From contig CM114271.1 of the NCBI GenBank assembly GCA_050084515.1, positions 27,466,001-27,530,000 of the forward strand: a stretch of DNA of 64,000 nucleotides. The letters are read 5' to 3'. The notes beneath the pieces are model-generated. The model did no database searches and was not told where the DNA came from. It worked only from the letters and a program-made list of their open reading frames with translations. Shown one piece after another: positions 2,459 to 52,700 of this stretch. The number at the start of each line of letters is the position of its first letter. Positions within the stretch are counted from its first letter, which is position 1. The position numbers and the translations under genes are program-made. Source of the stretch: Blasia pusilla (Eukaryota).

Positions 2459-2628
2459 GCTGGTAGTTAGGTCCCTCTAACTCCAGATAGCCATCTATCC
2501 GTACCTACCATGACATACATCTCTCGGACGCTAAGAGCAAGAAGGCCGGGTGCTCATGTGGCCCCATCGTTAGTCGCCTCCTTGTCATCCATGTCACAGA
2601 GACAAGTCGGAATGTAGAACTACCTTCT

Positions 2629-15337: not shown

Positions 15338-18300
15338 TCAAAGTGGTTTGTTTAAAATAATACCCACTTCTTTGAGGGACAAAATTGGTTGGTGCATTCC
15401 TACTCCTACCTCCGACTCTCTTAAAACTACAAGCAACACATAGTACATTTGCTTACAAGGGAAATACCTTTTGCCACTTGTCTCTCTTTGGACAAAGTCA
15501 TCACATGAACATGTGGGAAAGCAACAGATGTGCACCACATACACCCCCGTGACACTTGAATTTACAGTGTTGTTCCTGACCCAAGACATCCTTCCTATTC
15601 CATTGCCACTGTGGACATCTTTTGTGGAGATGATCTCTATTTTTGCCTCTCGAGGTGATGCAATTCGCTTTGCTCTCTCCACCGTTGGCCTACACAATCT
15701 GTTTCTCTTCACCCCATTTCTAGACTAAGAGAGAAATAGTGGATTGAGATCATCCACCTTCTCCGGGTACATGTTGACATCAATCTTGGGTTGAATACAA
15801 AATGCGAAGGTCTGTGTAATGCGAACATACTCTGAACTTCCTCCGTCTACGAGTTTGAAACTGGCACTTGTAAGATTGTCCACTTCGTCTTGAGTGCAAT
15901 TCGTACCTGCGGCGATGGGCCAAATCGTGGGGGTATTCCCCGGAGCTCTAATGGCAACCGGATAAGACTTTTGGAAAGCGCAAGATTCATTTGGGCAGAA
16001 GAAGTACTTTAATTGATCTCCGATCCTCGTGAAACGATCAAAGGTTTTGAGTCCCCAAAACCCAGGCAGTGGTCGTCCAGTCCTTGCACAGTTCTTATTT
16101 AGGAAAGTGCCGCATGCTCTCCTAATGCCATCAGATCCTGCCATGCAAGTGGGTCCACGTCCAGGGTTGCTTGGAGATATAAGCCACCGTTTCAGGTTGC
16201 AATCCACCTCCATGACCGGAATCCCATATTGTTGAACCACCCCAGCGACCGGATGTTACGAACTTCCAGCAACGGAGGGCTTTTGAAATAAAACATTCAC
16301 TGATTTTGGAGAAGTTACTCCATCACGGATTTAGGAGCAATCCCAGGTCCTTGAATACCTAGGCGGCATAATTTCCTCATCCAAATCAATCACCGGATTT
16401 GTTCCTCGATGCTGCCTCTTCACCTGCCTGAAGTCAAGATACTTATCTGGTCTCCACGAGTCTCGCTCGGACTGCTCTACCACCATCTGTATGGGACGTA
16501 TTGAAATGTGCCCACGAATATCCCCACCAAAATGTACGTCTTGTTCGAGGGGAGTTCCTGCTAGGCACCGGTTGAAGGCTTCCACATAGAGTTTCTCATC
16601 ACCAGATCTCAAAGCCGCCCTGACATAGAGCTCGTAGATCAAAGGCCCCCTTCCTTTTGTTATGCCTTTTGTGAGGAAGATATGGAATGCTTCAGACTGT
16701 AGCATTGCTCTTGCCTGGTCTTGTTGGCATGCCTCTACAAGTGAAATTCTTTGGCATGCTTGTGAGGACCTCTAGGAGGAATGAACACTTTCTGCTCCAC
16801 TTGTGTTGGGGCAGAGGGAATTTTCATGAATGTTCAATCCTTACAACGACCCCAATGTGAGAAGGGAACGAAAAGGGCATGCCTGACAAAGAAATAAGCT
16901 AACTGTCAAAACCAGACGGGTTGCAAGGCCGAGGCATCCCCTGAACAACTGAGCGACCTGTCGGTTCCTGACGTGTTGCAATACCCAGGAACCACCTAGT
17001 CGGATTTTGACGGGTTGCAAGTAAATTTGGCCATGCGACTTGCAATCCGTCCTTTTCCGACTGGTTGCACACTCACACAACCCCTCAACCCGTCCTTTTC
17101 CGACTGGTTGCACTCTCAGGAAACCCGTCATCCCATCCGATTCCGACGGGTTGCAAGTAAATTTGGCCGTGCAACTTGCAACCCATCGGTTTCCGACTGG
17201 TTGCACACTTACGCAACCCGTCGGTAAGCGATGGGTTGAACACTTAAGGAGGCAACTTGTCGCATCCGACAAGTTTCTTGGTTTCTTTGGTTTGAAATCC
17301 CTATAGTGCCCACGCTTCTCACCTTTAGCTGCAACTCTTCAAACAATTTTCAGCGAGACAAATTAGTGAACTCACCTCCTGCATGAAGTTTCCCAATTGT
17401 CTCATTCGTACAGTCCACCAACTCAACCAAGAGCATAGCTCTTTGTACTTCCCCTCAATCTCATGTTTCCTCCACCACCCATGAATTTTTTTTCTTGGCA
17501 TTCCATGGCCTGTTTCAAGGTTTTGCTATCCTTGCAGCGTTGGAGTAGAGTGACATGCTCCGTCCTCTTATTCTCCTTGATGCAAGATTTGGTGTACCGG
17601 GCCACAGAATGTTGCAAATGGAAAGCATCCGACCTTTCTCTCTCCGGTTGAACCTCCCAACCCCAAAACACTTCACTGATAGCAATCCACCCAGGTTGTG
17701 CATTGTCCGCCATGAACCCATAAATTTCCGGAGGTGGCCTTTTGTTTTCCTTCACCACCTCCAATAAGAGTAACCAGCAAATCTTCAAACTGCCAACGTC
17801 TTCTGCTTTTACTTCACAGACAAATATAGTTTTGAGTCCCTTCTCCACATGGTCATAAACGTGAGCACCCATTTTCAACCATCCGTTCAGCACTCTATAG
17901 CAAATATCAAAGCTTACCCAACTGCCGTAAAGATCTTCCCATTCCCTCATTTGGTCTATAAGATTGAGGCCACTCGACGAACCTGTCGTTGACCTTTTGA
18001 AGACATAGGCCTTGGATCCTTTGCCTCCCTGGCCCATGAAGTGCCATCTGTGAATGAATGGAAATCTGGAGTTGGCCTTGATTCTGGAAATGGCATCCAT
18101 TTCGGCCATCTTTCCATCCAATACCTGTATTTGACCTAGCAAATTCCGGAAGCACTCAGGATCAGCGAGAAATGCGAGATTTTCCCAGAGTTGTTTCTCC
18201 TCAACAGCCGTGATCTCGCCCTGTCCAGGGATTCCAAGCAGTTGTTCACAATTTGTGATGTTTTTGTTAACTTGATCACTTCGGGCTTTGAACCCAGAGA

Positions 18301-19200
18301 GTTTTTGTAGACCTCGGCCACTTTCTTCGCCACATCTTCCTTGATGTGTCTCTGAATTGCATCGGTCACAGGATGAGTGTGGGAGCCAACATGAACTGCC
18401 AACCTTGTGTACTCTGACGTGGAACCCAAGTCGTGGACAATGAAAAATATGTATGTAGGACATGCTCCAACGCAGAAAGGGGATGCTTGACAATAAGGAC
18501 ATCGATGGCCTCCCGGCGGTATGGTGGCACCGACCTCATATGGAGTTTCTGCATTCTTGGGAGGGAATTGCGACGTATTGACCTGCCCGTTGCGTTCTAG
18601 ATACGGGCATGCTGGACTTCTACACTCCAAGGCTCCAACGCATTGGCGGCGGGAGACAATCCAAGGACCATCTGGAATTAAAGCACTAGTCCGTTGAAGC
18701 CTGCACCATCAATGAGAATCACAATTTCTGTCCATACCCTTCAAGCGTCCTCCATCTTTCTTTTGACCAGGAGCAGCAAGTGGAAGCAACTCAAAAATGC
18801 AATTACCATCGTACGTGGGCGGCAGCTCATCGACAAGAATGTGTTTGACCATTTTCAAGGCCAGAGACAATAGCAAACTATTGCCTGATATTCGCAAGAG
18901 GAACGAGTAGGCGGACATAGGGCCTGGTTGGTGTCTGACCGATCCACTGAGGTTGACAACATCGGGAATTTCTTCAGGAAGTACAACATTGTAACGAATG
19001 TGTGAAGTTGGAGTCGATGCCGGATCTACTGAGCTAGGAGTTGCAAAAGTAGAGCTCGATGCACTAGAAAATTCTCGACGGTCTACTTGGGAAACATAGG
19101 AATTCAGATGCAAGCCGTAAACTCTATATTGACCATTTTCTAGAGGTAGAAGATTCCATACTTTACGGTCTGCAATCACTCACTGGATTGTCTCACCTAT
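15338..19200 (-). pseudogene. MULE-type transposase: GCM-like zinc domain, DDE core, SWIM finger (stops/frameshifts; probable intron ~16883-17375)
   Basis: QCVGALECRSPAC...CPYC...C...HVGSHTHP; VSFD (D1), FMAD (D2), DAFH (C/DxxH), PNTSGAESVH (E, ~16775-16810); CSCDDF...PCKQ SWIM; GT-AG sites at 17375 and 16883. Confidence 0.8.
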
Positions 19201-20530: not shown

Positions 20531-23500
20531 ATGACGAGGAAAAAAACTCAAGCAAGCAAGCCTGGGAGCTTCACTCCCAAGTCCAAGACTCCTGCGTCAC
20601 CATCTCCAAGGCCTCGTTCGGCCAATGAGATAAGGCAGCAAGAGATCGAAGAGCGCAAAAGGGAAGCGGAGATGCACAAACAAGAGCTTCTTGCAAAACG
20701 TGTTGAGGAGGCGATCGAAAAACAGAACGCAGAGGCTGAGGCGTCGTAGGCCTTGAAGAAAAGCATCGCCGGGGGGGAGTGTGAAAAGAACCGTCTGGAC
20801 GCGTCGGTGAGGAGAGCAGAATTGGCAAAAGCTTGAAGGGAAAAAGAGATTGCCATTGAAGAAAGCCGGGTCCGTCCAATCGAAAGTATTGAGATGCAGG
20901 AAATGTCTCTGATGAAGTCCGAGGACACAATCAATATAAAATCGGCTGAGGAAATGGGCGAAGTTCAAGTGACGGATGATGAGGTCATGAGGACCGCCAG
21001 CGTGGAGATGGTGGACATCTCTAAAGAAGCAGGAGAGCGGTCTTCCTCGTCTCTTAGCCCGGCGGAAGAAATCAACCTCTATCGGATCGACGAGTTTCCA
21101 GTGGACTTGCCATTTCTTTGTCCCAGCAGCGGTTGGCTAAGACATATCGACCCAATCTTCGAGCGGGTAATATACAAAGTTTGTTCTTTGAGTTATGTGA
21201 AGGCCCATGTTGCAATTCATTGGCAATTCAGTGTAGTTTATTGACCTTGTCCCCGTTGTGACAGGTGGTAAAGCAAATGGCACTGATGGAGGGCCAGAAC
21301 GCCCCGAGAATTCCACTTTTTTGATTGCGGACAATGGAGTAGGTCCGCAAAATTCAGTCTGACGAGGATATTGCGAAGCTGAAACAATCGGCAGCGACAA
21401 CATCCTACGTCAACAGCTTCCCTCCTCTATGTTCAGCCTTACGATGAACATGGAACCCAAGCGCTGGTGACGGAGGAGGACTTGGAAGCGCTCAACACAT
21501 TCTGTAGGATGAGAGATCAGGAATTCAGAAGGGCGATTGAGGGGACGGAATTCAGCTGGATGCGGAACCTGTATTTCTTCATCTGGGATGGAAACCACAG
21601 GTTCATGGCGTGGACCCAGTTTGCAGAGGAGTGCCAAAACTCATTGGAGGCGCATTTTTGCGTGAAGGCACTCGTGCTACATCCATACCCTCATCACATA
21701 GCGACGGTGGAGATGGCCATGCATGTCATGAACACGTAAGTTTCCTCTTCCTTTCTTTTGATTGCTGCAAACTGTCGGACTTCGACGAGTTGTTTAACTA
21801 GTGGTAACAATACATCGGATGCCTTAAAGCAACTTGTCGAAGTTCGACGAGTTGCTTGACTGGCTGCTGTTTTTAGGATATTTTTGGCCGAAAGCAACTT
21901 GTCGAAGTCCGACGAGTTGCTTGACTAGCCGCTGTTTTTAGGATGTTTTTGGCCGAAAGCAACTCGTCGGAGTCCAACGAGTTGCTTGACTAGCCACTAT
22001 TTTTAGGATGCTTTTGGCCGAAAGCAACTCGTCGGACTCCGACGAGTTGCTTGATTGGCCGCTATTTTTACGATGTTTTTGGCCGAAAGCAACTCGTCGG
22101 AATCCGACGAGTTGCTCGATTGGCCGCTGTTTTTAGGATGCTTTTGGCCGAAAGCAACTCGTCGGAGTCCGACGAGTTGCTCGACTGGCCGTTGTTTTTA
22201 GGATGCTTTTGGACGAAAGCAACTCGTCGGACGTCACTTGATTTTTGGCGTCAAATTGCAGCTTTACTTGAAATTGCGCAACCTGTCGGACTCTGACGAG
22301 TTGATATGTTCACTTTTCCAGCGGAGACCACTCTTTGAATACAAATTATCTGACAACCCGTCGGAGTCCGACTGGTTGTAACCAAACAATCACAAATCGG
22401 AATGCTATCCGTCGGACTCCGATGGGTTGCAATATTTAGCTCGTAGCTACCATTCCGACCATGAGGTGTGGCAACCTGTCGGAGTCTGACGGGTTGTAGG
22501 AACCCATGTAGCTTGCAAAAATTCTTATATTGTGTTTGGATGTGCAGGATTGTATCTGAGGGGAATGTCACCCACCACTGGATCCAGAATTGCGATCGGG
22601 TGAAGAAAGTGCTAACGACGCACCCGGCAGAGTACAAGGGGTTCTTGGGCGATGCTTGTAAATGAGATGCTGGCGAAGGGGGCTCAAATAAAAAAAAAGA
22701 CTTGGGAAAATATATTTATTTCCCAAGATGCAGCCGTGACAATCCTTGCTGGTTGAAGCTACAGGCCACCAAGAAGAGCGCTTCATTGGAGTTGGAGCGG
22801 AGGAAGAATATGTCTGTGTCTGAGCGTGCTAAGTTCATCCAAGTTGCAGTATCTGCAGCTACGAAGTACACTGCAAGGAAGATCCAGCGCTACATCGCCA
22901 TTCTCAACCCCAAACTTGGCCCCGATTTCTACAAGGAGCTGAAGGCGATAGTCAAGCGCCAGCGGAAGAGGGATGAAGATCTGCAGGGTCGGATTGGGGA
23001 GAAAGTATCTCTCAATCGCGTCCATCGATTTGCCTTGTCTGGAATTTCAGAATTTAGGAGAATCCGACTGATGAAAATCAGTCTCGAGGGCATAGAGGCC
23101 CAAAAGAGGGCGGCACACCATCCTCCGGGTGTCTCTGTTCCAGTGATCTCCCACTGGCTCCGTGAATGATCATTCTGGGACGCGTTGCGGCCTCTCGAGA
23201 AGTCCATGCTCGTGGGTCTCCAAGCCGAGCTGAAAAAAATAGAGCCTGTTCCGAAGGAAGCAAACCTAGAGAGTGGTAAAGATTTCGAACTTTGGCTGGA
23301 TGACATCTGGGACAAGCCCATAAAAAACCCACTCTTCAGGATGATGTTTAAGGATCACATCCTCCCTCAAGCAGACCTTGATGAAGAAATAGAAGCGAAG
23401 AAAAAAGATTTCACAAAGAAAAAATGAGATCTTCAAGGGCAGGCGGCCAATGCATCTCGACTAAGAGCTACCCAACGCATGGTATTCAGGTACCTCGTCC

Positions 23501-26573: not shown

Positions 26574-27232
26574 ATGTGGGCTTTGCTTTGTGAATCAGCA
26601 CCGCATCTTGGACTCTCCTCCGTAGTTCTTGGTCAAGTACCCCGTACCAATACTGGATTGATTGCGCCTCACTCACTCCATACGTAGCAATGATCAGCCT
26701 CCTCATGCGTGTGAATGCCTCTCTTAGACTCTCACCTGATCGTCGCTGAAAATCCTGTAGACTCTTCAGCTTGTCGGTGCGTACGCCATGGTAGCTCTTC
26801 CCCGACTGTCGGAAGAACTCCACTGTGGGGCTAAAGCTCGATGGCCCTCTACCACCAGAGATCTTTGCCACATCACGTGTCTAACTGCCCTCCTCTCCAT
26901 CTAGTCTCCTGGCTGATGGTGTGGGTCTCTCTCCTCTCACAATCCCATCATATGCCTCGTGACCACTAGTGGACATATACCCTGGAGCCCAATACATCCT
27001 CCAGGCATCGATCTCTACTAAATATAGTGATCAAAACTCCATGTAATCATCCATCAAAGGACCCTCCAAGTGCTGGAATAACCCCTTCCATGCCATGAAA
27101 GGGTTGAACCGTGTCGGGGTCCGTATCTCCTGGAAGTCGCACCACGTGTCAAACTCCTGGATAAAATCATCTAAGTCGATGGTGCCCACTGCACCCAAGA
27201 AACGACGCATTCCCCGATGGCCCATGTCGTCC
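26574..27232 (-). pseudogene. gag fragment of the copy-2 family fused to a truncated B repeat
   Basis: Diverged copy of ~34078-34730 (GTIDLDDFIQEFDTW...FNPFMAWKGLFQHLEG). Confidence 0.85.
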
Positions 27233-27769
27233 AACATGAGAAAGATGGCTTAGGAAAGCGATCTTCCTCTCTTATATAGGGTTGGGAAGAGCCAAAAGGC
27301 TCTTTCCCTAAAAGTAGCCCTCCCGTTGGTAACCTGCGCGCACAGGTTACTAGGGGCGGGTGACCTGGTCAACAAGTCATTCGGCTGTGAAAGACCTCAA
27401 CATGAAAGTTGTCAAAAACAACGTTCGTGACACAATGGACCTATCCTCAACCTCATCCAACACAGTGGGACAAAGTTACACTCCAGATAGTCCATTGGCT
27501 CCTACGCCCTATCCACGATAGATCTCCGCCTATCAACTACCCAGATGTGACAGTTGTCGTGCGCATACATATCGCTACACAACATACATCGCTGGTCACA
27601 TCTACACCACACAACATCAATCTTCCCCACACATGGGTCGATCCACACATGTACAAAAATCAACTTATACATATACATGGAGATCACACAACCGCCCCCC
27701 TAGCTGGCAATTGGATCCCCCCTAACTCCAGATAGAAAATATCACATATCTCTCACATTACCTACAACC

Positions 27770-29060
27770 CTATACACATCCATCGTCCCGTGGGAACCAC
27801 ATCAAGGGGGGGGTCAGACATGACATATGCCACCCTCGAGAACAACCATCACATACCAATATGGTGGTTGCACCCCTCGCAGATCCGCACAACATACACC
27901 TCAAGCCTCTAGGTACCACTGCCAAGCTCGGATCCACTGGCTCATCTACGTTCGGAAGATGATATGGCCCACAATTGCGCACATGATCCTTCCAAACCAT
28001 ACCATCTCGTCCCTCCAACATGAGGACTCCGGTCGGTAATAACTCGCGTACACGTAGGATCGTGCGCCCTGCAGTGACATCTAGCGTCGTGTGTGCCTCT
28101 AGCTGTAAATACACGTAATCTCCAGGATGAAACCTCCTAATCCTTGGACAATAACCTCCTCCACGAATGGTCGCGTACCTCAATATATCTCTATGTTGAG
28201 CAATAGCTAAGTTCTCAAAGGCCATAGGCATAACTCTAGGAAAATCCTCCGCCCTTTGAGAACATGCTTATATCCACACATCTGGATCATCAAGATCTAA
28301 CACCTCTACCATGTCACATCGAATCGCTTCAGGTAAATCTGGCTCTCTCTCAAAGAGAAAAAAGTACGATGAAAATGACGCCAAGGATGCCTGTCGACTA
28401 AAGCGATAATCCATAGCCAACCATGGCAAGTGTAGGTCCCACTCCATCAACTATCCCTACTGCAAGCCATAATTGCGCAATCCTCTCTTCACCGTCTGTA
28501 CCACTCTCTCCGCCAACCCATCTGCCTCAAGATGATCTCTGGACGTGGTGCGGTGATCTATCAGCACCTCATCACACAAGGCCTGAAACTCTCCCCTGAA
28601 CTCGGTACGTTGGTCAGTCAACACCTCCGCCGGTGCACCAAAGTGACTAAGCACATGATCTAGAAATGCATAAGTTGGTTCCTCGCTCACCTTGTCCGGT
28701 AGTGCCACCAACTCTATCCACTTGGAGAAATGCTCCACCATAACCAACATGTACATATGATGACGCCCCGTCAATGGCAAAGGTCCCGCAAAGTCTAAAC
28801 TCCACCGATAACCTAAACCCATAATCAAAAAAGGATGTAACTACGGAGTGGGAGCATTGAAGGATGCTAGCACTCTGTCACATATCATACATCTGGCCAC
28901 AAACTGTTGTACCCCAGTATGCATGCCGCGTGACCAATACTAAATCTGGAGTAAGCTGTAAGTACGCTTCACTCCAAAATGTCCCAACTCCTCATGGGCA
29001 TGTCGTACTACACATGCTCGCTAGGAAGGATGAGGTACCACTCGTATCCTACCATCTCCC
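27770..29060 (-). pseudogene. Integrase plus PHD finger of copy 2
   Basis: WSLDFAGP, VLTDQRTEF, DGLAERVVQTVK; CMLC...LVCDGCSRGWHMSCL. Confidence 0.9.
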
Positions 29061-29439
29061 CATACCCGCAAAATGTGAGTCCCCTCCCACCTGAACCTCT
29101 TGGCTCTCTGTAGGATCCGATCCCGCTCCCTTGCACTCACTATGCTTGCTATGACGCTAGTGCGCAAGAACTCCAAAACCTCCACGTCGTCATGGATATC
29201 ACGACCACCTGTCGCCTCCTCACTGATCTCCGGATCCAAAGACTCATCATCCAATCCCACCACTGAAGTCACCACATGTGGTTGACCTGCCATAGTCAAC
29301 CAACAAAGATAGGCATATGCATGCCAATCGGGCACCATCTCCTCATCACTCTCTCCGTGCCATCGAGCTCCTGTGTCGTCTCTCTGACTCGAACCTAACC
29401 CATCCGCATCTTGGTTCAGCCGACTTGGCCTATGAACCA

Positions 29440-30760
29440 CCTCAAACTCATACTCCTATAGTTATAGAGCCCACATGGCAAGCTTTCCCGTAAGCTTGTC
29501 AGACTCCATCAACCACCTCAAGGGCTGATGATCAGTGAAAGGGTTTCCGAATAAATAGCACGTGAAATGTGCCACGTCCCACACTGCAGCCAAGCACTCT
29601 CCCTCGTAGGAGTTGTACTTTGCCTCTGCAATATTGTTCTATCGGCTCGCGTAAGCCACCACGAACTCCCTCTCCTCGTCATCCCTCTGAGTAAGCACTG
29701 CTCCTAGACCCAACATGCTCCAATCCATATGTAACTGGAATGGGCGACCCCTAACGGATCTCTGTAAAATGGGTGAGGACGTCAACCTATCCTTGAGCTC
29801 CTGAAATGCTCGCTCCTGATATTCTCCCCACAACCAAACCTGATTTGCTAACTGATCGCATGAGCGTTTTGAGACTATTTTATGAATATCCAAGGTTACT
29901 TTGCCTTACTTCAATGTGTTAGACATTGAAGTAAGGTAAAGTCTCGTCAACAAGGTCAAAGACTTTGCAATCGCACTAAGACCCTTGACATATCGTCAAT
30001 AGAAGTTCGCCACTCTAAGAAATGCTCGGACTTGACTCACATGTGTAGGGCGTGGAATCTGCGCAATAGCCTCTACCTTCGTCTGTTGAACGCCTAACCC
30101 ACTCGGGTATATGGTGTGTCCCAAATACTCAATCTCCTCCTGAAAGAATCTTCACTTGCCTGGATGTAACTTGAGTCCATGTAACTGCAATCGCCGAAAC
30201 GCCTCCTCCAGGTGTCGCTCATGCTCCTCAACCGTGGAATTGAAGATAAGAATATCATCTATGTAACATCGTACAAACTCCAAGCCAGCCAGAATCCTAT
30301 CCATCACTCTCTGAAACTCTGCAGGCGTGTTCTTCAACCCAAATGGTAAGAACCGCCACTGGTACAAGCAATCTCTCCTGAACCGATCTATTCCCCACAA
30401 TGTTGTCTTCTCCTTGTCCTCCACCCTGATAGGAAGCTGATGATAGCCAGCACGGAGATCTAACGTACTGAAGATACATACTCCCCATGTGATAACTCCA
30501 CAAGTCCTGCCTCCAACAAGTCATGACTCCTACTTTGAATCAAGGCTCGCTCCATATTGGAATACATGTAGGGTCGACGAAAGATCGGCGTATCACTAAC
30601 CAACTCAATCCGTATCCCGGGACCCTTCAGCGTACCCAAGTCTCTCATACTGAAGGCAAAAAAACTGACATGCCCTCTTAGAAACCTATGAACTTGCCAT
30701 CGCTCTCCTCCTATCAACTTGAGATCTATCACAGGTTCCCAAGTCTCCATCGTGACCTCA
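29440..30760 (-). pseudogene. RT and RNase H of copy 2 (internal deletion near 30474)
   Basis: LPFGLKNTP, YIDDI, PFQLHMDWSMLGLGAVLTQ, VVAYASR. Confidence 0.9.
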
Positions 30761-31059
30761 CTCGGAGAGGACGCAACCTCCGGCTTTGGTTGCCATGTAG
30801 CAACCCTAGCCACCTCCGCAACAGCCACTCCACTCTGACCTCCTACACCATGCTCCATATCCAAAAAATGAACATGTGTTACTCTGGCCACCTTCGCACT
30901 CTCCGCTCGAACGACGTCCCAAGAAGTCCATGGGTGCCTATCTCTCCTCGTCTCGCCCCCAGCCAATGCCTGTATAGACCCTGGAGGCAATGGTCCAACT
31001 CGTGGACGTGACGGCATGGATGACACTCGCATCCGGCTCTGCTCAGCCATACCTGGGCT

Positions 31060-32010
31060 GACTATCCATGTGAGACATTTGAGGTCCATCGCCTGCCCCA
31101 ACACCTGTCTGCGGGATGCCTCAGTCATCCCTGGCACCGCCGTAGTACCTGTAACAAACCCCATGGTGCGCTCGCGCTCATCTGCTGGAGGCTCCTCCAA
31201 TGCTTCGGTCACCTCATCCCAAATCATGTCTGTCCCTCCCTGACGAAAGGCATGGGATGCTGGGAAGCTCACCAATGTAGGTACGGCTGCCCTCAACTCC
31301 CCCATCCTATTGGCCATCGCCAACGGTGGTCTATCATCCCACGTCACCACCTGAGATCGACGCCTTGAGCCCAAAATAGCATCCACTGTGAGATGTGGTG
31401 TTGTCTGGACTCCATCATATGCTCGACTCAGTACCTCTGATGGTATCAAGTTCGTCCACCACAATCGTTGACAATGGGCACCTGATCCAACTCTTCTGAA
31501 TCTAACAACACAGCAGGTCCCAACCAAGACCTCACCTGATGCACACTCGTCATCACACGTGCACGAGTGTCTCCCAACAACGGCACGTTCTCCAAAATGT
31601 ACGTTGGAGAACATGTATAACTCTCCTGCAAGTGTCGTACTACTCGTAGCATCTCCCAAAACATCCTTGGCCTCGGATCCTGCAATCCAAATCCTCGGCC
31701 AGCTGATGAATGACCCTGACATGGCCATCCAGCAATCACCAAATGAATGGTGCCAACTCTATCCAAATCTTGCGCCCCCACCAAAGAGATGTCGACGGGT
31801 AGTGTATGCTAATATCCCCGTACTGCAGATATCGGCAACAACTCAGGATACCTCTGGACCAATCTTGCCACGTAACGTAATGATACTCGCCGCACGGTCT
31901 TATCTCTCTCCACATAAAGGTACTGATGCACCTGTATGCCCGCCTGCAATACTGCTGGCAATCTAGTGCTAATCCTCCGAAGAGATCTAACACCCTAATA
32001 CCCTCCTCTG
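31060..32010 (-). pseudogene. DNMT3-like C5 cytosine methyltransferase domain of copy 2
   Basis: GIRVLDLFGG/IS...AGIQVHQYLYVERD (I, II), LVIAGWPCQGHS (IV, catalytic PC), YILENV (VI), AHCQRLWWTN (VIII), ERERTMGF...RRQVLGQAMD (IX, X). Confidence 0.9.
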
Positions 32011-32344
32011 GGCACTGCCACACAACGGGTGTGGTATCCAGTGGGGTCAAGGTCTCCACTCCAAGAACCCGATCGCCACGTGACTCTCGCTGCTGCGCGA
32101 TAAAAGCATGACTCCACGCTTGCCTCACGAGGTCATTGGCACTCCTCTGTAGCTCTCGAGTCGTACCCCACAATGGTGAAGAGGTCTCGCCAACATGGGA
32201 AGAGACACCCGCCATGGCCTGTCTCTCCGTGGGACTATCCGCTACTAGGACATCCTCCGCATGTGCGTTCCCCTCCAACAACTCTCTTGGCGAGCTAACA
32301 CTAGCTGTGAAAGCTGCCAACGTGGTCACAGACTCGCCTCGTGA

Positions 32345-32818
32345 TCAACCACCTCGTCCCCCATATTGCACAGGTAACTGACTCATCCGCATATCACCTG
32401 ACCGCCACCGTGGCTGATAAGCAACGGTCTCCTCCCAAAAGTCAAGGATGAATCCTAGGTGATATAACACTATACTCCCCACCAACACATCGTACGACTC
32501 AACTGGTGTCGTAATCGCACGTGTGCGCACCATAGCACTATCCGTCGCATGCTCTGGCTGGACTCTGACAACTATCTCATGTCGAGTCATATACTGCATG
32601 GGTGACATGCCCCCAATCGAGGTCTGTATCTGGAAGAGACAAGGATCAATGTCGGCCTTCCGTAACCCCAATGCTAAACACGCCGCCTTCCCTAACATCA
32701 AGGGTTGCGCTCCCGAATCAAGTAGGACGCGCTGCAGGTGGTATACTATCCCCGTCGGACTAACCAAGCAAAATACTCCAGCTCGGTTATCCAGTAACAC
32801 TATTCCAAGTGTCACCAC
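32345..32818 (-). pseudogene. Aspartic protease of copy 2
   Basis: VLLDSGAQPLMLG...YDVLVGSIVL. Confidence 0.85.
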
Positions 32819-33366
32819 TGCTTGCTCTATGGCCGATCAAGCGGCAATATCTACCAACTTCATCGCCGCCGCATGCCATGACTCTATGGGGAACGTCCCG
32901 AGCACCGGCTCTAAGGGCGATTCCACCACCTCCTCAACTACCTCTGAACAAGAAGCAATCACCTCTCCACGCTCACACAACATGGCGGCCAGCCGGAACA
33001 CCTCATCGGGTCCAACTCCCAACGTCGCCAACTCTATGGCGGAAAATAGTGGAGTCTGACTCACTCTAGTGGCCACCTCCAACACTTTGGTCAACACTGA
33101 CTCCACTTGAGCAGTTAAGTTATAGGAGTTGTCATACGAGTTGTCACTCCAACTCCGCGTGACGTCAACATAGGTACCTAAGCTGTAGGCACCGCAGGTT
33201 GTCGAGGCACCATCGATGGTGTGTGTAGTGTCTCCGACAATGTGAATGACTGTGGAACCCTGGCTTGCCGCCCATCGGTCCCCTCTGGTGGGTCAATCTC
33301 AACTCCACCTCTCGATGGATCGGTGCCTCTCGCAGCACCCTGAGTCACCACTGCAGCCGCCTCAAC

Positions 33367-34905
33367 CTAGGCTGCACTACACATAAACCCCATACTAGCG
33401 AGATCCTCACCCGGGTTAGGGTAAGAGATAGAATCTAGAGTCACACTAGCTGCTCGTAGCTCCGTGCCTTCCCTAAGCTGCATCATCGTCATGGCAGCAA
33501 TCCTCTGCTCTAATTGATCGATGCGTGAGAGAAGTGCCGGCTCTAGTGGTCTTGCTCCATCTCCTCTGGCTGGTGGTGGTCCTCTACCACCACGTCTAGG
33601 AAGGACTCCCCGACGTCCTCCAAGACGACCGCTCCCAGGCCCTCGGCCTACCTCTGGACGTACCTCTTGGTGAAGGTCAAAACATCTATCCCTAGTGTGA
33701 CCATATCTGTGGCAATAGTCACACTCGGGCTGTGGTGAGGCCATCCTCTGTGGCTCCCGAGAAATTGGAGGCGCTCGTGGTCCTCTCCCATGCTGTGGGC
33801 AGTCTCTTTGTCTATGGGCCCCTCCACACGTCCAACAGAACCACATCGGTCCCTGCTGGGCAACATATGTAGGTACGGGTCGTTGCCTCATAGGCTCACG
33901 GTACCCGCTCTGCCCTCTAGGCATCGGCCCGCTCCCATGGTACTGGTGCTCGCTCTGGCACGTGTGGGGTCACCGTCGCTTGTGGACCCGTTGACTCTCG
34001 AGAAAATCCAGCGGTCACTACCTGCTCCTCATTCATGTTGAGCTCAATACGCTCAGACAACTCAAAGACCACCTTCAATGTGGGCTTCGCTGTGTGAATC
34101 AGCATCGCATCTCGGACTCTCCTCCATAGTTCTCGGTCCAAGATTCCCACTACCAATCTTGGACTAATCGCGCCTCGATCACTCCATACGTAGCAATGAT
34201 CAAACTCCTCATGCGTGTGAATGCCTCTCTCGACTCTCACCGATCGTCGCTGAAAATCCAGAGACTCTTGACTTGTCGGTGACGCCCTGGTAGCTCTTCC
34301 CGATCGCCGAAGAACTCCCTTTGTGGGGTTGAAGCTAAGTGGCCCTCTACCACCAAAGATCTTTGCCATAATGCCTGTCTCACTGCCCTCTTCTCCATCT
34401 AGTCTCCGGGCTGATGGTGTGGGTTTCTCTCCTCTCACAATCCCATCATATGCCTCTCGACCACTAGTGGACAATACCCTGGAGCCCAATACATCCTCCA
34501 GGCATCAATCTCTATTGAATATAGTGATCAAAACTCCATGTAATCATCCATCAAAGGACCCTCCAAGTGCTGGAACAACCCCTTCCATGCCATGAAAGGG
34601 TTGAACCGTGTCGGGGTCTGTATCTCCCGGAAGTCGTACCACGTGTCGAACTCCTGGATAAAATCATCTAAGTCGATGGTGCCCACTAAACGCGAGAAAT
34701 GACGCATGCCCCGATGGCCCATGTTGTCCATCTGCTGCCAAGTGATACTGCCTTCCTCTGCGATCTCGTCACCAGACCCAGTGTCTAGTGATGATGATCC
34801 AGCCACGGATGGATGTCGAGGTAGCTCCTCACTGGTAACCCCTCGGTATCTCACTCCACTCCGTGTCACACCACTACTACTGCTCCCACTACCCCGTTCT
34901 TCCAA
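33367..34905 (-). pseudogene. gag of copy 2
   Basis: CWTCGGAHRQRDC and CDYCHRYGHTRDRC knuckles; frameshifted upstream capsid-like ORFs. Confidence 0.85.
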
Positions 34906-35708
34906 ACCCTGGAAGAACGCCGTGATGACAAACCCTGTCTCACCCGCTCAAGCACTCAGACTCACTGAGAGTCTCCCATACGCCTCACTAGCTCACCTAT
35001 GCTAACGTCAATCGCGTGATGACACACCCGGCCTCACGCACACTCAACACTCGGACTCACCATGAGCCTCCCAACTGACTCACCTAACCTAGCGACACTC
35101 TCGTGTCATACATGCGACCCCTACGCGGCAACTACCGTATAGCCACCAACATGCTACACATGAAAAGAGTCTACACTCGTCGCCATCACTACACCCACCT
35201 AGCACCGCTACTACCCGATACCCAGCACTCCCAATCACACACGACAAGTGCGAGAAAAGGGACTCGAATGGGTAACCTGATCACGCCCTCCAACCTACGC
35301 ACCGTCAACACTCACTCCTCCATGTGGTATGGCAACCTCTGCAACACGACACTCTCCTCGACCAACACGTCGAACTTCACGTCAGCATCAACACATGTGT
35401 CTCCACCACATCCCTTGCACCCACAGTCGATAAAGAACTATCGAGTCAACCCCCAATCGACTTGCAATGACTGACAAACTCCCGTCGCGAATCCCATCCA
35501 CGCTCGTGAATCACCAAATGCAAAAACGAGCTCCCACTGCGCAACTCGCCTCAACCACATCCAATTGCTCAACCTCGTAGCCTGAGTCAACTTGGTATGG
35601 CTCCACTCCTACCACGTACATCCTGTCTGACCATGTCAATATGACCTCGACCACATCCGGGCTCTCAACCACGTCTGCCCTACCTCTACCACGTTGATGC
35701 ACGGGGGG

Positions 35709-36391
35709 GGAGGAGGCCTCCCCAAGTGCGGGGCGGGGATGGGTAAGGGACGGCCGTGGCTCTGGCCGCCTCCCCACCTCGTCTGCCTCCGCCTTTGCAC
35801 CCGTTCGTCGCCGCGCCCGTCCTCTGCGACCTAAACCAAAATTTCCTGCACTCTAGCCTATACTCCTACCTTGGCCGTGTATGTACGTATGAGCTAGGCG
35901 GCTACGACCTAACCGCCTTACTTAACAGCCCCCCGGTGGTTGCAAGCCCTAACTCTCCTTCCTGGTTACTCCTGACATTCCGGCTATTACACGACGTTAC
36001 ATTTGCCGTCACAACTGCGCTACACCCTGTTGCTGTCCCCAATCAATCCGGAGGAGGCCTCCCCAAGTGCGGGGCGGGGATGGGTAAGGGACGGCCGTGG
36101 CTCTGGCCGCCTCCCTGCCTCATCTGCCTCCGCCTTTGCACCCGTTCGTCGCCGCGCCCGTCCTCTGCGACCTAAACCAAAATTTCCTGCACTCTAGCCT
36201 ATACTCCTACCTTGGCCGTGTATGTACGTATGAGCTAGGCGGCTACGACCTAACCGCCTTACTTAACAGCCCCCCGGTGGCTGCAAGCCCTAACTCTCCT
36301 TCCTGGTTACTCCTGACATTCCGGCTATTACACGATGTTACATTTGCCGTCACAACCTGCGCTACACCCTGCTGCTGTCCCCAATCAATCC
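35709..36391. repeat. Near-identical tandem duplication, 341-bp period, in the leader of copy 2
   Basis: 35709-36049 repeated at 36050-36391. Confidence 0.93.
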
Positions 36392-39300
36392 GTACCAGCA
36401 AAATCTGAGAAAAACGGACAGCGCTTCCGCCCACGGCCTTCCGAACACAAAAATGACCAACACTCGCAACACACGCGTCTCTAAGGGCTCCCGACCAAGG
36501 CAACTCGCTTGCCTACCTGCAAACAACGAATTCCCACCAGCCCCCTGACATCTTTCTCATGTAAAAATAAAGAGTAGTAAAAACAGCACACCCGGCCTAA
36601 AACTCCACTCCTCAGTCTACATCGGCATATCAAGCCTCGTCCACCCTGTGCTATCAAGGAATCCGGACGCTAGCACCCTTGTCCTATCTCACACACATAC
36701 AAGAGAGGTGCTCCAACGGCCCAACATGAGAAAGATGGCTTAGGAAAGCCATCTTCCTCTCTTATATAGGGTTGGGAAGAACCAAAAGGGTCTTCCCCTA
36801 AAAATAGCCCTCCCGTTGGTAACCTGCGCGCATAGGTTACCAAGGGTGGGTGACCTGGTCAACAAGTCACCCGGTTGTGAAAGACCTCAACAAGAAAGTT
36901 GTTAGAAACAATGTTCCTGACACAATGGACCTATCCTCAACCTCATCCGACACAGTGGAACAAAGTTACACTCAAGATAGTCCGCTGGCTTCTACGCCCT
37001 ATCCACGATAGATCTCAGCCTATCGGCTACCCAGATGTGACAGCTAGCATTTGTCTTAACTCCCGTGGTTTGGTTGTCTTCTCGCCCTGCACCTTTCTAT
37101 ACTCAGAAATATTAAATGGTGTGGTGGTGTACCTATGCTATGTACTAGGCACCGTTATGGAGGAGGATGTATAGAATGGAACCATAGGTTATGCATGCCC
37201 GTATCATGTCCATCCTCTCCACCTCTTTTCCATCCCCTCTCCACTTATTTTCCCCCTTCCTAATCCCTATTCCCTTGCATGTCCATGATCCCACTTTGTA
37301 CTCCTCTCTCCTTTATGTTTGTTAGGTGACTTCTTTCCTCTCCTATATGACCCTTCCTCATTGGTGATCCCTTTCTACATTCATTCTCTCTCCCCCTCTT
37401 CATGATCTTGTGGTCCTTTTCTCTCAATTCAATTTTCAATTTTTATTCATGGATTCCTCTCGCCTCCTTGACATAGACAATGGATGAGCATGAGAGGATG
37501 GAGCATGAGAGAGGGTCATCCCTTCATTCTCCTCCTTTCTTTTTTTTTCTATTGGATGATTCTCTTTTTTTTTTATAGTTGGAAAATAAAGATTATCATT
37601 ATATTGCTAGATGATGCAATCTATACATCTAGTATGGTTATTCTCGTGTGATGAAATGGGCCAAAGGAACCTTTTCAATCCTTTCGCATACGGCCCATCA
37701 CTTTACGGATAGGAAGGCCTCCCCCCACCTCCCTTAATGTTTTTTTGATGTATTTGATGATAAAAAAACTAATAAGAGAATAAAAACTACATCAAACATT
37801 TCATAGATATAATATAATTTTATAAGATTTATTTAAAACATTTTTCTTTTATTTCAAATATATTCATGGCACTCAAATATTTACTAAAAAATATCTTCAT
37901 AATTATCTTAGTCTTGACACTTTGAACCAATCAAATTGCTCACCTTTTGGACCAGTAAAATTCCTCAAAATTGATTTAATCATATTTAAGAATTATGAGA
38001 ATTAACTACAATAAATAATATAAACATAACTTATGCTTAATATAATAAGATCAACTTTAGTATTCCAAAATCTAGACGCATTCTCTAATAAAAATAAGAA
38101 TTTATATTATGATTGTGGGAGAGTGCTTTTTTTTATTTGGAGACACCTCTATTCCCAACATTAGACAACAAAAAAATATTTCAAAAAATTTAATTTTTTT
38201 ATAGTATATTAATATTTTCCCTTCATAAACTAATATTACTCTTCTAACACTTTTTTAATATAACTCTTCAAACACTTTTTTTTCGTGCATCTTACTATAA
38301 AATAAAAATACGTACCTCCTAAATAAACATCCCAACGATGTCGGTGACGTGAGAGAGAGGACTGGAGCATGAAACCAGTGGCACAGCATGGCGCTTTTAA
38401 CGGTGGTACTCTCGCTTCAGGCGAGCGAATGAAACCGATGACTTGCGCAAGGGGGAGACGAGGATTTGGGCTGTGAGACGGTCGAGTGGGACGAGAGCTT
38501 GCGGAGTCGACGGCCGTCGGTCAATGGAGGCCTGTGTGGCATATGCTCGAGCTCGGGGCGGGAAGAAAACTTTGAGAATCTTGGGTCGCCCACGTCAACG
38601 TGAGACTGCGAAGGCAGCTGAAGGAAATGTGTGCCGATCGTGATCTGGTTCGATTTGCTTTGACTCGTGGGGATTCTCGGGAGGTTTACCGCGTCAGCAG
38701 AGCGAACTCAGCGAACGATCGGCCATTTCGCCCTCGCAACTTCGGAAGGTTTACTCAAGGGAATCCGCGACTCGGGGGCAGGGAAGTTCTTGAACTCGAC
38801 TCTCGCCGGCGTTGAGGTCCGACCTCCTGTACGAGAGGGTGGCCGGGTTTGAGGGTTGATTCGATTTGCTTCGTGGGATCTCAGCGTGGGATTCGAAGGC
38901 ACCGATGTTGTCAGCTTTCGGCTGTGTGATCGCTTTGATTTGACTCACTGCGGTTCGGCGTAGAGAGGCAGACGACGTCAGCCTGCGAGAGAGCCCGCTC
39001 ATTGGACTCACGGGGAAGCGTTGCCGAGACGGATCCGAGGGCTGTGACAGGCATGTGAAACTGGTTTAGGCGGTGCTGAGTTGAATAATGTGCATAGTTG
39101 ACTCGTTCGAAAGGGAACGTGCTCTCTGAAGATGGAACTAGCCGATCGATGTCAGTGGATGGGGTGGAGTGGAGAGGCAGATCGTTAGTATGACTCTCCC
39201 TGGTAAGGGAACGGACGAAGCAGGCAGCGAGCAACTGGGGAATACGGTTCTGGCGACGTGCCAGAACTACAGGCATAAGCTAGTGCAGTGCAGTGCAGGT

Positions 39301-40822: not shown

Positions 40823-41464
40823 CTAATGGCAGGCGGAATCGTATGGTGCTCCCAAGAGCTCCGGCCCATTAAGACCCGGGTTGTTCTCGAAGCTCTTGAG
40901 CGAGAAGCGAGAGAATGAGCCTGTCGTAGGGATGGTTCCGCAGAAATTGTTGTCGGAGAAATCCACGACCTTCAAGTTTGGAAGAGCAGTAAGCTCGTTG
41001 GGAATACGGCCTCGCAATTGATTGTTGTTAACACGGAAGAAGACGAGCGACTTCAGCTTCCCGAGCGACGAAGGAATCTCACCGGTGAAATTGTTGTAGT
41101 ACAAATCCAAGCTCACGAGGTTTTCAAGCTCCCCGAGCTCCTTGGGAATACTGCCCTCCAACTTGTTCTTGGAGAGCTCCAAGTACTGCAAGCTGCGCAA
41201 GCTCCCCAGCTCGGGCACCAGCGACCCCGAAAGCCCTGCATTTCCCAAATCCACGCGCACCACCTCATTCTCACGGTTGCAAGTCACATGAAACCAAGTG
41301 CAAGCGTTCACCAAAGTCGGATCCCAGCTCTGCAGCACATTCTCCGGGTCCTTCAAATTCCTCCGCAAAGCGAAGAGCGCATCCCCTTGATAATCGGCGA
41401 CGATGTAGGGCATCCCTGCCACCATCAGCAACCCCACCAGGCTCACCACCCACGGTGCCATCAT
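40823..41464 (-). CDS. Secreted leucine-rich-repeat protein (SERK-ectodomain-like, LRR1 type), 213 aa, no TM or kinase domain
   Basis: Hydrophobic signal peptide, [42 protein letters not shown], plant LRRs LxxLxLxxNxLxGxIP, ending [11 protein letters not shown]; uninterrupted ORF in a GC-rich island. Confidence 0.92.
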
Positions 41465-46910: not shown

Positions 46911-47673
46911 CTTACTTTCCTTTCCCTTATCCATATGAATACGCCCTTTCCCACCTAAGGCTAGTCTTAGGCGCGTACCTATCACGACTAGAATTAGTCA
47001 CGTAACCAATTTTTCCACCCTTCCTAGTTTTACAACTAGCTAGTCTAGGTTCTGATATTGGTGGATCACACTAAGGTCTATCCTCTTAGGATCTAAGATC
47101 ATTACTCGCTTCTCAGGTCCTCGCTAGCATGAGCACCATAGACTTAGATATTCACAATGTCTTTTTGATAAAATTAACGCAGCTTTATCATCACAAGTCA
47201 CCACTTGAAATTACTGCCTTGGATTGGAGATAACACACATTTTCAAGTACTATGTCCTTTCATCTCCATCATAAGCTCGCCTCAAAAACTCTTAGAGTAG
47301 AAGGTGTTCCCATCACCATGATAATGATGTGCACGTGATCCAACACTTGCCACATCTAAAAACAATGTTGGTCCCAAAAAGATCTCACTTAATGCATACT
47401 CATTATAACTCATGCATGAGTGTTTACCCAAAAAAACATATTCTCAAAAATTTACATTGGAAAATTAAACCCTTGCCCAAAATTATAGATGACTCACCAA
47501 AAAAATAATTATAATTGAATTATAATTTAGTTGAAAGAAAATATTTATTGCACTAAAATCATTTATTATCTCAAATTTGGAAGTAGTTACAAGTTGGTGA
47601 GCGCTCTATTTGTAGAGTTGCAAGTTAACTATAATTTATCTGTATTTTCTTTCTCAACTTACTTGGAGGTTGC

Positions 47674-49769: not shown

Positions 49770-52700
49770 GTGTGCACCATGGAGAGACACTCTTGTGAGA
49801 GAGATATTTGATTTACAGAGAAAGAATGAGCTCCAAAGCTCTCTCTCCTTGGGTATACCCCCGTCCCTTTCCCAAGCTCTCTCCATGTAATCTATTCTTG
49901 CAGGTCATCTCCTTGGCTTTTGACATGTTGTAGGAGATCAAGGGCCACTTCCCAAAGTGGAAAATCAACTACACTCAAAACCGTAACTTACCCAAAATTG
50001 ATTGGAGATATTTTGGTATTTGATTGTCTTGATGTTTGGACGTGATGAGTTAGCATGGGATTATGTGTGTTTTCCGTGGCAGGGATGTATGTTGTGTAGC
50101 AATGTGTATGCGCATGACATTCATGATGGAAGGTAGGTCAAGGGCAAGTAGGGCCATAAGGGAGGAGGAAGTGGGGATGGAGGGAGGAAGAAACATGAAA
50201 GTATGGAATACATAGGAAAGTGGGGGGAATGAGAAAGAATTGGAAGGTGGATTCCATATGGAAAAGTTTTTCCATATGATGGATGTAAGTCCGTAGACAT
50301 GGACATGTCCACGGACATGGACATTGTCTACACGCAACCTTGAAGGTTGTAGGATACGTCGTAGAACTCCCAAATTATCTCAATTCATAACATTAAGTTT
50401 TATGATAAAATTGATCAAACCCAATACCAAACCAAAATATTGGGAGCACAGCATGAAGTATGCATGGGTACAAAAAAATTAATGGAGAAGATACACACGA
50501 TAAGCACAAATTCGAAGGGAAAGGGTATCTAATAAGCACTCTTATCATACCTTAGAAGACCCTTATTACTCATATGTATAGTTTACCATATTAACTCCTA
50601 ATACATCCATGGAGTTGAGAAAGGTTTCTTAGAGATGCTATCTTCTTTTCATTTTTCCCTTCATACTCTCCATTTTGAGAAAAGAAGAAGTAGAAAGGAC
50701 ATTGGGTGATCAATAGTTGGTTATGACCACTTTTCAATATCCAAATCTATTCTTTATCAATTATATACCCCTTCCATCCCTTTCTTGCTCTAGTTGCCAA
50801 AGATGTGCCTCAACGTGACTAGGGTGGTCCCATTCCTTACAATTTCTTGGTAGCCATAAAATCAATGGTTTTCAGATCAATCACATGATTCACATATATG
50901 TGCGTCCTTATGAACACCATATATTAAATAGATAATTTTGTCCATCCTTGATGTTGGGATCAAATTATGAGGGCTTCTTAAAGCTCGGAAAAGTACATAT
51001 AGAAGCACAAAATAGAAAGCTCAAATATGCTCTCCAAAAGTTGAGATTGGATATGACCTTCCTTCCTTTGATGAGTTTTTAGGTTTGATTGAGAAGTTGT
51101 GATACAAAGCCTCCAAAAGATAGAATCCAAGTACTTTTTGGGAAAAAATATCCTTGAAAGATTTAGTAATTATTTTCAAACACCAAAGTTAGTTAATGAA
51201 GTATACATACTACTATAAAATATATGTTGTTATCATGAACACATACAAATACTAACATCCGCAACACAACATTACCACATCTTAGTTAGCCAATACATAG
51301 AGTTCTATTGTGTTGATGGCATAGAGAGTCAACGGGTTGTTCAAGCATAACTTTGTCTCGAAGTGTCAAGTGAGGTTGGCAACAACTCCAATGTGTCAAG
51401 ATTTTCATTTCAAAAAATCCCTCTATTTTGCTATTTGGGGCCAGATGACCCAGTAATCAAGTCAATGGTCACCTGGTAACCTACGTGTGTAGGTTACCAT
51501 TTGGGGCTAATTTGGGGGAAGGGTTCTTTTGACTCTTGCAGAGTGTATAAAGGTGAGGGAGAGAGCTTTCACAAGCCAGCTTTCTCTTGTTGAGCCTTTG
51601 AATCACTAGGGTTTTTAGGGTTTTCTAGGACCTTAGGTGCTAGAGTTCATATTCCCTTATGGTAGAGAGTGGATGTGGCTTGATATGCCAACATAGATTT
51701 AAGAGTAGATTTTATTGTTTGTGCCCATTTTACTTTAATTTTATATGAGATGTCAGGGGTGAGGGAATTTTTTGTGTGTAGGTGGGCAACCAAGTTTCAT
51801 CATTGGAGAACCCTAGAGACATTGTGTTTACCTTAGGTTGATTTTTTCTTTGGAAGGTTTTGCGCTCAAGCGCAAAATGTTTTTGGCCAAGTTTTGGTAG
51901 TAGTAGACTAATGCAGGGTAGTAATAGAGTCTTGGGAAGTAGTGCTTACGTGTAGCAGGCAATAGTGTTGTCAAGAGAGCGATTCTTAGTGGTGAGTTTG
52001 AGTGTTTGAGTATGTGAGGAAAGGTTTTCATCATTTTCTTCTTCCAAGGTTTGGAAGAATAGGGTAGTTTGAGCACTACTAGTAGTGAAGGTATGCGGGG
52101 CAAAGTGAGGTACTAAGGGGTTTTGAATGAGGAGCTAACTAGACTCCCATCTATGGTTGGATTCTTATCATTGGACAACGAGTTTATTCACAAGATTATA
52201 GACCAAGACAATGGTACATTGGGAAATATGGAAAACATGATCCATTTGTGCACGAGTAATTTCTCAAGTATGGTAGGCATCATGGATCTAGATGATTTCA
52301 TCCACGAGTTCCACATGTGATATGACTGCCAAGAGATACCTGCCCCTACACAATTCAACCCTTTCATGGCATGGAAGGGTTTGTTCTAACATTTGGAGGG
52401 ACTTCTTATGGATGACTATTGAGAGTTTTGATTTTACGCACTGTAGAGATTGATGCGTGGAGGGTGTATTGGGCTCTAGGGTATGTGTCTCCTACTGGTT
52501 GTGAGGTATATGATGGGATAATGAGAAACAATAGATCCACACCATCATCTTAAGGACTAGATGGGGATGTTGTGATTGATGGCAAGGAGGTGATAGAGAC
52601 CTTTGGTGGTAGAGGGCCACTAAATTTCAATCACATAGTGGAGTTCTTCAGAGATTTTGGAAGGAACTACAAGAGCGTGCAAATTGACAAGCTAAAGAGT

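Follow-up and report, generated by a model that had tools for sequence, protein, structure and literature searches.

Why a transposon should carry an enzyme that its hosts use for silencing transposons is an open question. The closest described case is KnitGypsy-Dnmt3 from Klebsormidium nitens, a Gypsy element with an unrearranged Dnmt3-related DNA methyltransferase (DNMT) domain in its Pol open reading frame (ORF) and with repeats laid out as in a DIRS retrotransposon, in the order A-coding region-B-A-B (PMC5890265; here and below, what we say of cited elements follows the excerpts of the papers on which we draw). We describe an element family of the same kind from a 64-kb stretch of contig CM114271.1 (positions 27,466,001 to 27,530,000, labelled Blasia pusilla), which is called the window throughout and is numbered from its first base. 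The window family is very probably a marchantioid Ty3/Gypsy family with a DNMT3-type domain and a putative self-methylation role, and would form a land-plant branch of the KnitGypsy-Dnmt3 lineage.

In the texts at hand, DNMT-bearing retrotransposons have so far been placed in dinoflagellates and in one charophyte alga, neither of which is easy to work with genetically. Recurrent independent captures of DNMTs are documented, and the charophyte capture is ascribed to 'the K. nitens lineage' (PMC5890265). Two other texts, both citing the K. nitens work, mention DNMT3s in retrotransposons 'as previously reported in streptophytes' (PMC12344493) and give 'streptophytes (Gypsy-DNMT3)' as a known case (preprint 10.64898/2026.05.21.726589). 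In a full-text literature search, none of the texts retrieved named a bryophyte retrotransposon with a DNMT; the supplementary trees of PMC5890265 and PMC12344493 may include Marchantia. The kind of element is already known, and what appears unreported is the land-plant branch, its size, its second architecture and its PHD finger. Intact relatives are already public as unremarked gene models from Marchantia, Calypogeia and Sphagnum. The window itself adds dead copies only. With the same kind of element present in liverworts and mosses, including Marchantia polymorpha with its methylomes and mutants, the question becomes testable in a tractable land plant.

Compared through the legends of Figures 1e and 4c of PMC5890265, KnitGypsy-Dnmt3 has the same non-rearranged DNMT3-related domain in the Pol ORF, the same Gypsy domain set and the same A-coding-B-A-B repeats, which are complete in copy 1 of the window. 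Its key catalytic residues are conserved and it bears signs of purifying selection, as does the bryophyte family. Its host is a charophyte alga, in contrast to the liverwort, a land plant, considered here, and the copies in the window are dead. Because both the odd repeat layout and the domain set are shared, the case for common descent is good but indirect, and we infer that the bryophyte family is a land-plant branch of the KnitGypsy-Dnmt3 lineage. Such a branch would make the capture older than 'the K. nitens lineage'; the capture also looks wider than that lineage, with the module having moved within pol.

Other described elements share some of these features. SymbioDIRS-Dnmt3 of Symbiodinium shares a DNMT3-type domain in Pol, A-coding-B-A-B repeats and variants with differing domain order, but it has a tyrosine recombinase where the family described here has a DDE integrase (Integrase_H2C2 and rve) and a Ty3-like reverse transcriptase-RNase H (RT-RH). 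EpiLTRs are also Gypsy-type elements with a methylation module; the present family is without an adenine methyltransferase, and the EpiLTR DNMT is reported to be sister to DNMT4, not DNMT3 (10.64898/2026.05.21.726589). Chromoviruses, again Gypsy-type with a chromatin-related module, carry an integrase chromodomain rather than the PHD finger found here.

The methyltransferase domain in the window

The window is a nest of decayed long terminal repeat (LTR)-type elements comprising two Ty3/Gypsy-type copies on the minus strand and two or three fragments. A sequence-only reading had proposed that a Gypsy retrotransposon here encodes a DNMT3-like cytosine methyltransferase between protease and RT, at 31060-32010 and again at 6040-6990. 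Searches by tblastn with P0025, an intact relative, place the copy 2 domain at 31039-32131 (minus strand; high-scoring segment pairs from 32131 to 31039 in frames -1, -3 and -2, joint E 2.6e-124) and the copy 1 domain at 6024-7101 (minus strand; E 1.3e-77, three frames). The earlier intervals lie inside these and are slightly short at each end.

All of the motifs named in that reading were recovered in copy 2 by alignment with P0025, in canonical order on the minus strand: IRVLDLFGG (I), YVERD, AGWPCQGH (IV), ILENVP, AHCQRLWWTN, ERERTMGF and RRQVLGQAMDL. The copy 2 domain keeps motifs I, IV, VI, IX and X and has an altered motif VIII; it is a pseudogene whose reading frame shifts near 31970 and again near 31510 and holds a single in-frame stop. 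Also a pseudogene, copy 1 still shows motif I, ILENVP, RAHRPRLWWTN and ERERAM; four in-frame stops and at least two frameshifts interrupt it, motif X has been lost by frameshift, and motif IV is destroyed, with ARLAMSYN replacing AGWPCQGH. The features that identify a C5 cytosine methyltransferase (the Pro-Cys of motif IV, ENV and the S-adenosylmethionine (SAM) loop of motif I, in canonical order) are therefore all found in copy 2, while copy 1 lacks motif IV. In both copies the domain lies between protease and RT, and the earlier statement that it occupies the same position in pol is borne out.

The motif I that had been reported for a third copy is present at 54044-54190 (plus strand), decayed to LNLFGWIST with stops. 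It belongs to a heavily decayed fragment at 52258-54262 (plus strand), which also holds gag (52258-52757) and protease/linker sequence (53590-53957). A fourth fragment, recognised at 47160-47380 (minus strand) by alignment to relatives, covers the DNMT motif VIII region and contains stops.

In the suggested check against Pfam, PF00145 matched the copy 2 piece at 31446-31808 (minus strand; E 4.9e-10, 39.8 bits against a cut-off of 22) and the relatives P0008, P0009, P0016 and P0049 (E 1e-8 to 2e-11). The domain is thus confirmed, although 'encodes' holds only in the past tense: every DNMT copy in the window is a pseudogene. Chance motif matches were considered as the origin of the DNMT signal and rejected.

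Similarity to DNMT3 enzymes

As to the kind of METHYLTRANSFERASE, complete domains are DNMT3-like, and the short copy 2 piece alone is closest to bacterial enzymes. When the whole of P0008, from Marchantia, was compared with PDB sequences, 25 of 27 matches were DNMT3A, DNMT3B or DNMT3C (best E 1.7e-08), with HaeIII at 1e-3 and tobacco DRM at 2.6e-3. The domain-only profile A2, built from 18 sequences, gave DNMT3A at 1.1e-14, DNMT3B and DNMT3C at about 5e-13, DRM at 4e-10 to 1e-7, Dnmt2 at 6e-5 and HhaI at 1e-4; DNMT1 and chromomethylase (CMT) were absent from the PDB matches of this profile at E<=1.

Structure comparison gave a similar ranking. The AlphaFold model of P0025 has a mean predicted local distance difference test score (pLDDT) of 93.4 and a predicted template modelling score (pTM) of 0.92. 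With this model as query, the Foldseek matches listed to rank 50 were all DNMT3A, DNMT3B or DNMT3C, the best with E 1.7e-18 and a target template modelling (TM) score of 0.84. VIA-align, which is independent of Foldseek, compared the same model with 48,161 chains and ranked DNMT3B (Z 28.4; 278 residues, 2.6 Å) and DNMT3A (Z 27.1) ahead of M.MpeI (25.2), HhaI (22.1), ZMET2 (18.2), DNMT5 (18.0) and DNMT1 (17.6). Motifs I to X run linearly in the A2 profile alignment and in both window copies, and are not permuted, unlike those of DRM. The family domain is predicted to be a C5 cytosine methyltransferase that is complete and not permuted; among solved enzymes, DNMT3A, DNMT3B and DNMT3C are nearest to it. 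The DNMT3-like identity first suggested from motifs is thus supported by sequence ranking and predicted structure.

Relative to mammalian DNMT3A, DNMT3B and DNMT3C, the family domain has the same order of aligned motifs (I, IV, VI, VIII, IX and X), and 278 of 291 residues superpose at 2.6 Å. It differs in overall sequence (about 22% identity), in having PCQ for PCN and in about 40 extra residues between motifs VIII and IX; it is also without PWWP or ADD domains and is set inside a retrotransposon polyprotein. Plant DRM2 belongs to the second-best group in the sequence searches (E 4e-10 to 1e-7). The DRM match covers only the motif I-IV half, in the C-terminal part of the DRM chain, which fits the DRM permutation as against the linear order seen here.

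Gag-Pol organisation and repeats

On the minus strand, both copies read gag (CCHC), aspartic protease, DNMT, RT, RNase H, DDE integrase and PHD finger. In copy 2, gag occupies 33193-34731, with the CCHC region in the ORF at 33367-33969; the aspartic protease region at 32345-32869 was delimited by alignment to residues 724-1008 of P0049, which has Pfam protease matches; RT-RNase H lies at 29066-30741 (alignment to P0009 residues 696-1190); a piece of the integrase core at 28457-28840 is an ORF resembling the copy 1 integrase; and the C-terminal PHD finger is at 27770-28267 (PF00628, E 6.1e-07). In copy 1, RT-RNase H is at 4350-5684 (RVT_1, E 4.9e-21), the RNase H end and integrase are at 3454-4698 (Integrase_H2C2 E 5.4e-17, rve E 7.5e-07), and the C-terminal PHD finger is at 2629-3174 (PF00628, E 1.2e-11).

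The protease-RT-RNase H-integrase order, the DDE integrase and the Ty3-like RT that define Ty3/Gypsy elements are all present, with RVT_1, RT_RNaseH, Integrase_H2C2 and rve found by Pfam. When the polyprotein profile was compared with the PDB, Ty3 Gag-Pol ranked first (E 1.2e-78). The full-length alignment A1 behind this mixes two domain orders, which scrambles the positions in its profile, and was used only for conservation in DNMT columns, as fold input and for recognition of Ty3, integrase and PHD. No Pfam match to a chromodomain was found at the integrase C-terminus; a PHD finger (PF00628) stands there in both copies and in the relatives P0072, P0085, P0094 and P0101. PDB profile matches of the PHD part include the PHD fingers of CHD4, KDM5, KMT2D, ATXR5 and UHRF1.

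Copy 1 spans 1679-12563 (minus strand), as bounded by its A-coding-B-A-B repeats. A1 (12050-12563) pairs with A2 (1805-2318) as 514-bp direct repeats of 96.5% identity, and B1 (2322-2448) pairs with B2 (1679-1805) over 127 bp at 98.4% identity; three bases separate B1 (2448-2322) from A2 (2318-1805). The flanks, GTATT and ATATT, agree at four of five bases and may be a decayed 5-bp target duplication. Copy 2 (27231-37043, minus strand) is bounded by its A repeats, A1 at 36721-37043 and A2 at 27231-27553, which are 323-bp direct repeats of 92% identity; repeat comparison places its B1 at about 27554-27692. The classical layout of two simple LTRs with a primer-binding site and a polypurine tract was not found, the direct repeats being arranged A...B-A-B. 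The two copies are only about 75-79% identical in DNA.

Several smaller observations concern these copies. Some 720 nt inward from A1, copy 1 contains a segment (11225-11330) that is reverse-complementary (83-95%) to B sequence and to the A2/B2 junction (1751-1861 and 2394-2448) and recalls the internal complementary region of DIRS elements. The leader of copy 2, between A1 and gag, holds a tandem duplication of 341-343 bp (35709-36392, 98% identical). Transitions account for 20 of 26 A-repeat differences in copy 2 compared with 8 of 18 in copy 1, an excess that may be a deamination signature in the older copy. The ratio of observed to expected CpG ranges from 0.74 to 0.80 within the elements, compared with 0.54-0.70 for their flanks, and is uninformative on past methylation. 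At the expected B2 site of copy 2, a gag fragment at 26574-27233 adjoins A2 and is 89% identical to copy 2 gag (34078-34730); it is a rearranged or recombined neighbouring element.

Family size and architectures

Word-indexed searches returned 58 and then 78 relatives. The close named ones come from Marchantia polymorpha (represented by many gene models, which share 70-75% identity with the copy 2 piece), Calypogeia fissa, Sphagnum troendelagicum and S. fallax; Haematococcus lacustris, Monoraphidium neglectum and Hariotina reticulata are among the named sources of proteins 35-57% identical to the Marchantia domain P0008. A HMMER search over 1.84 billion representatives found 431 clusters at E<=1e-30, 1545 at <=1e-10 and 6636 at <=1e-3, and the 150 clusters listed all fell below 1e-58. 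Among 51 relatives, which are 29-77% identical to the first sequence, the catalytic cysteine C140 and the Glu-Asn of ENV (E183 and N184) are invariant, and G55 (motif I), R223 and R225 (motif VIII) and G348 (motif X) are kept in at least 90%.

A DNMT match was present in 126 fetched proteins: 37 show the domain alone, 42 have protease-DNMT and/or DNMT-RT, and 47 have RNase H-DNMT and/or DNMT-integrase. The group of 42 comprises the bryophyte clade, P0071, P0115 and a further clade, made up of unnamed proteins that share about 50% identity with the bryophyte one. The group of 47, with the order RT-RNase H-DNMT or DNMT-integrase-PHD, includes chlorophyte proteins (Hariotina, Haematococcus, Monoraphidium and many unnamed), with Pfam coordinates for four. 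The earlier view that the DNMT is fixed in a Gypsy family, and not a one-off capture, agrees with these 42 proteins and with the invariant catalytic residues.

We placed 50 DNMT domains, all of them family members, in a tree by a quick IQ-TREE search with no outgroup. The RNase H-DNMT-integrase order occupies one side of a single branch (Shimodaira-Hasegawa-like approximate likelihood ratio test (SH-aLRT) 95), and both window copies fall inside a clade-like bryophyte set (SH-aLRT 100). Given this single-branch split, the DNMT module either relocated within pol a single time or passed from one related element to another by exchange. The family is large, with the protease-DNMT-RT order in liverworts and mosses and with the DNMT between RNase H and integrase in chlorophytes. 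It has been under past constraint: besides the conserved residues, nonsynonymous differences between the two window copies lie well below synonymous ones, in the DNMT as in RT-RH.

Transcription of relatives

In three RNA runs under the same species label (X20-X22), copy 2 is covered at a depth of 0-6x. Since most of the reads are 95-99% alike and align only in part, they stem from relatives. Internal bins of copy 2 are covered almost exclusively by pairs whose first mate maps to the plus strand. At 31710-31744, the DNA of motif IV, 11-14 reads per run in all three runs match just these 35 bases and diverge on both sides; when translated by hand, their extensions are in frame and, both before and after the Pro-Cys, follow the consensus of the family. 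One or more relatives that retain an intact catalytic loop are therefore transcribed under this species label, with DNA contamination possible at this depth.

Proposed role and alternative explanations

In active copies, the enzyme would be translated within Pol and packaged with RT, and would methylate CG de novo, either on new cDNA or where the element integrates. Through its PHD finger, the integrase might read the state of the histone H3 tail and so choose the landing chromatin; the presence of this finger in place of the chromovirus chromodomain suggests targeting through histone reading. That active copies methylate their own cDNA or landing site is a fair idea to entertain, though we would not call it probable. 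It is the proposal of de Mendoza et al., and in the excerpts of PMC5890265 cited here the experimental support concerns the dinoflagellate DIRS domains only: those of SymbioDIRS-Dnmt3 methylate CG de novo in yeast. The copies in the window are incapable of methylation or targeting now. About as tentatively, the elements may represent one ancient green-plant lineage, running from chlorophytes to liverworts and mosses, with a DDE integrase, DIRS-like repeats, a DNMT3-type domain and a PHD finger, whose module moved once and whose transcription continues in liverworts. Mobile de novo methyltransferases would then exist in land plants, and Marchantia genetics would offer a way to learn whether they serve to camouflage the element's own cDNA or act on the methylome of the host.

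Several observations weigh against a DNMT3-type element of the KnitGypsy-Dnmt3 lineage that methylates its own DNA. Homology with KnitGypsy-Dnmt3 was judged from architecture and repeat layout only; the full A-B-A-B arrangement occurs in copy 1 only, copy 2 being without B2 and having the gag fragment in its place; and a purine-rich tract and a recognisable tRNA primer site were looked for beside the repeats and none was seen. As for the enzyme, four of the five DNMT ORF pieces tested gave no PF00145 match at E<=0.1, these four being short or decayed. The 120-amino acid piece is closest in the PDB to M.HaeIII and M.HhaI (best E 4e-4), with none of its 14 matches to DNMT3. In its catalytic loop the family has PCQ, like bacterial enzymes, against PCN in the aligned DNMT3A chain, and the structural margin over the bacterial CpG methylase M.MpeI is modest (Z 25.2 against 27-28 for DNMT3). 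The label 'DNMT3' is a ranking against solved structures, and the domain may instead belong to a sister group or to one like the 'ChloroDNMT' group named in PMC12344493. In yeast, no methylation was obtained from the KnitGypsy DNMT domain, an outcome regarded by the authors as inconclusive (PMC5890265). The RNA coverage is very shallow, at 0-6x. Finally, synonymous divergence between the window copies is saturated (pS 0.67-0.76), so that the proportions of nonsynonymous and synonymous differences (DNMT, pN 0.415 and pS 0.737; RT-RH, pN 0.217 and pS 0.687) give pN<pS and no omega.

These points bear on several alternative explanations. A bryophyte Gypsy element could have captured a DNMT3-like gene independently, its likeness to KnitGypsy-Dnmt3 being convergent. 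Recurrent captures are known and the charophyte one is tied to 'the K. nitens lineage' (PMC5890265), no K. nitens protein is named among the 58 and 78 relatives found, and the two DNMT positions in pol across the family mean that the module moved or was captured more than once. We nevertheless consider such a capture improbable: the unusual A-coding-B-A-B repeats are shared with KnitGypsy-Dnmt3 together with the Gypsy domains, and DNMTs of the two architectures are 35-50% identical to one another, compared with about 22% to DNMT3A, and behave as one family in the profile search. Still harder to credit, to the point of being nearly dismissible, is a nesting artefact in which Gypsy insertions split, or lie next to, a host DNMT3 gene and the whole was read as a chimera. 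Two copies with only about 75-79% DNA identity have the domain at the same place, uninterrupted database ORFs read protease-DNMT-RT-RH (P0009 and P0060) or DNMT-RT-RH-integrase (P0071), and an intron-like break is absent; the fixed position and the uninterrupted ORFs of relatives already contradict a nested host gene, even in a window that is a nest of decayed elements, as the gag fragment abutting copy 2 illustrates.

A methyltransferase of bacterial, viral or green-lineage-specific DNMT origin might merely resemble DNMT3. The PCQ loop, the first-ranked M.HaeIII and M.HhaI matches of the short piece and the position of M.MpeI close behind DNMT3 would all fit; in an ESM Atlas feature search, phage methyltransferase clusters scored the same as the streptophyte cluster (0.96, PF00145), which is non-discriminating. 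This origin is quite improbable given that full-domain searches put DNMT3A/B/C 5 to 10 orders of magnitude before bacterial enzymes, that DRM, a plant DNMT3 derivative, ranks second, and that the top Foldseek matches listed were all DNMT3. A different kind of alternative grants the catalytic domain and gives it another role, such as action in trans on host chromatin, methylation of RNA or a structural part in Pol. The silence of the isolated KnitGypsy domain in yeast would suit it, and RNA methylation was raised by the authors for other transposable element DNMTs (PMC5890265). The catalytic Cys, ENV, the SAM-binding residues and the motif VIII arginines are, however, kept in 51 diverse members, the fold fits DNA-bound DNMT3 structures (278 residues, root-mean-square deviation 2.6 Å), and the SymbioDIRS-Dnmt3 domains are active on DNA in yeast. 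Taken together, these points leave another role somewhat unlikely.

Host gene and neighbouring sequence

An intact, intronless host gene lies at 40823-41464 (minus strand), where database comparison identified a 213-amino acid ORF for a leucine-rich repeat (LRR) protein 1-like, or SERK-ectodomain-like, product. It is 85% identical to its counterpart in Marchantia paleacea, 82% in Riccia fluitans and 79% in M. polymorpha, against 55-74% in vascular plants. Because the gene is closest to those of Marchantia and Riccia, the host is a marchantioid liverwort, and the occurrence of the element in a land-plant genome, which the sequence-only reading had thought would be notable, is upheld. Between the two elements, 15338-19179 (minus strand) contains a run of long open frames (128-370 amino acids), and 21761-22280 contains a tandem array of about eight 65-bp units, 71-91% identical to the reference unit.

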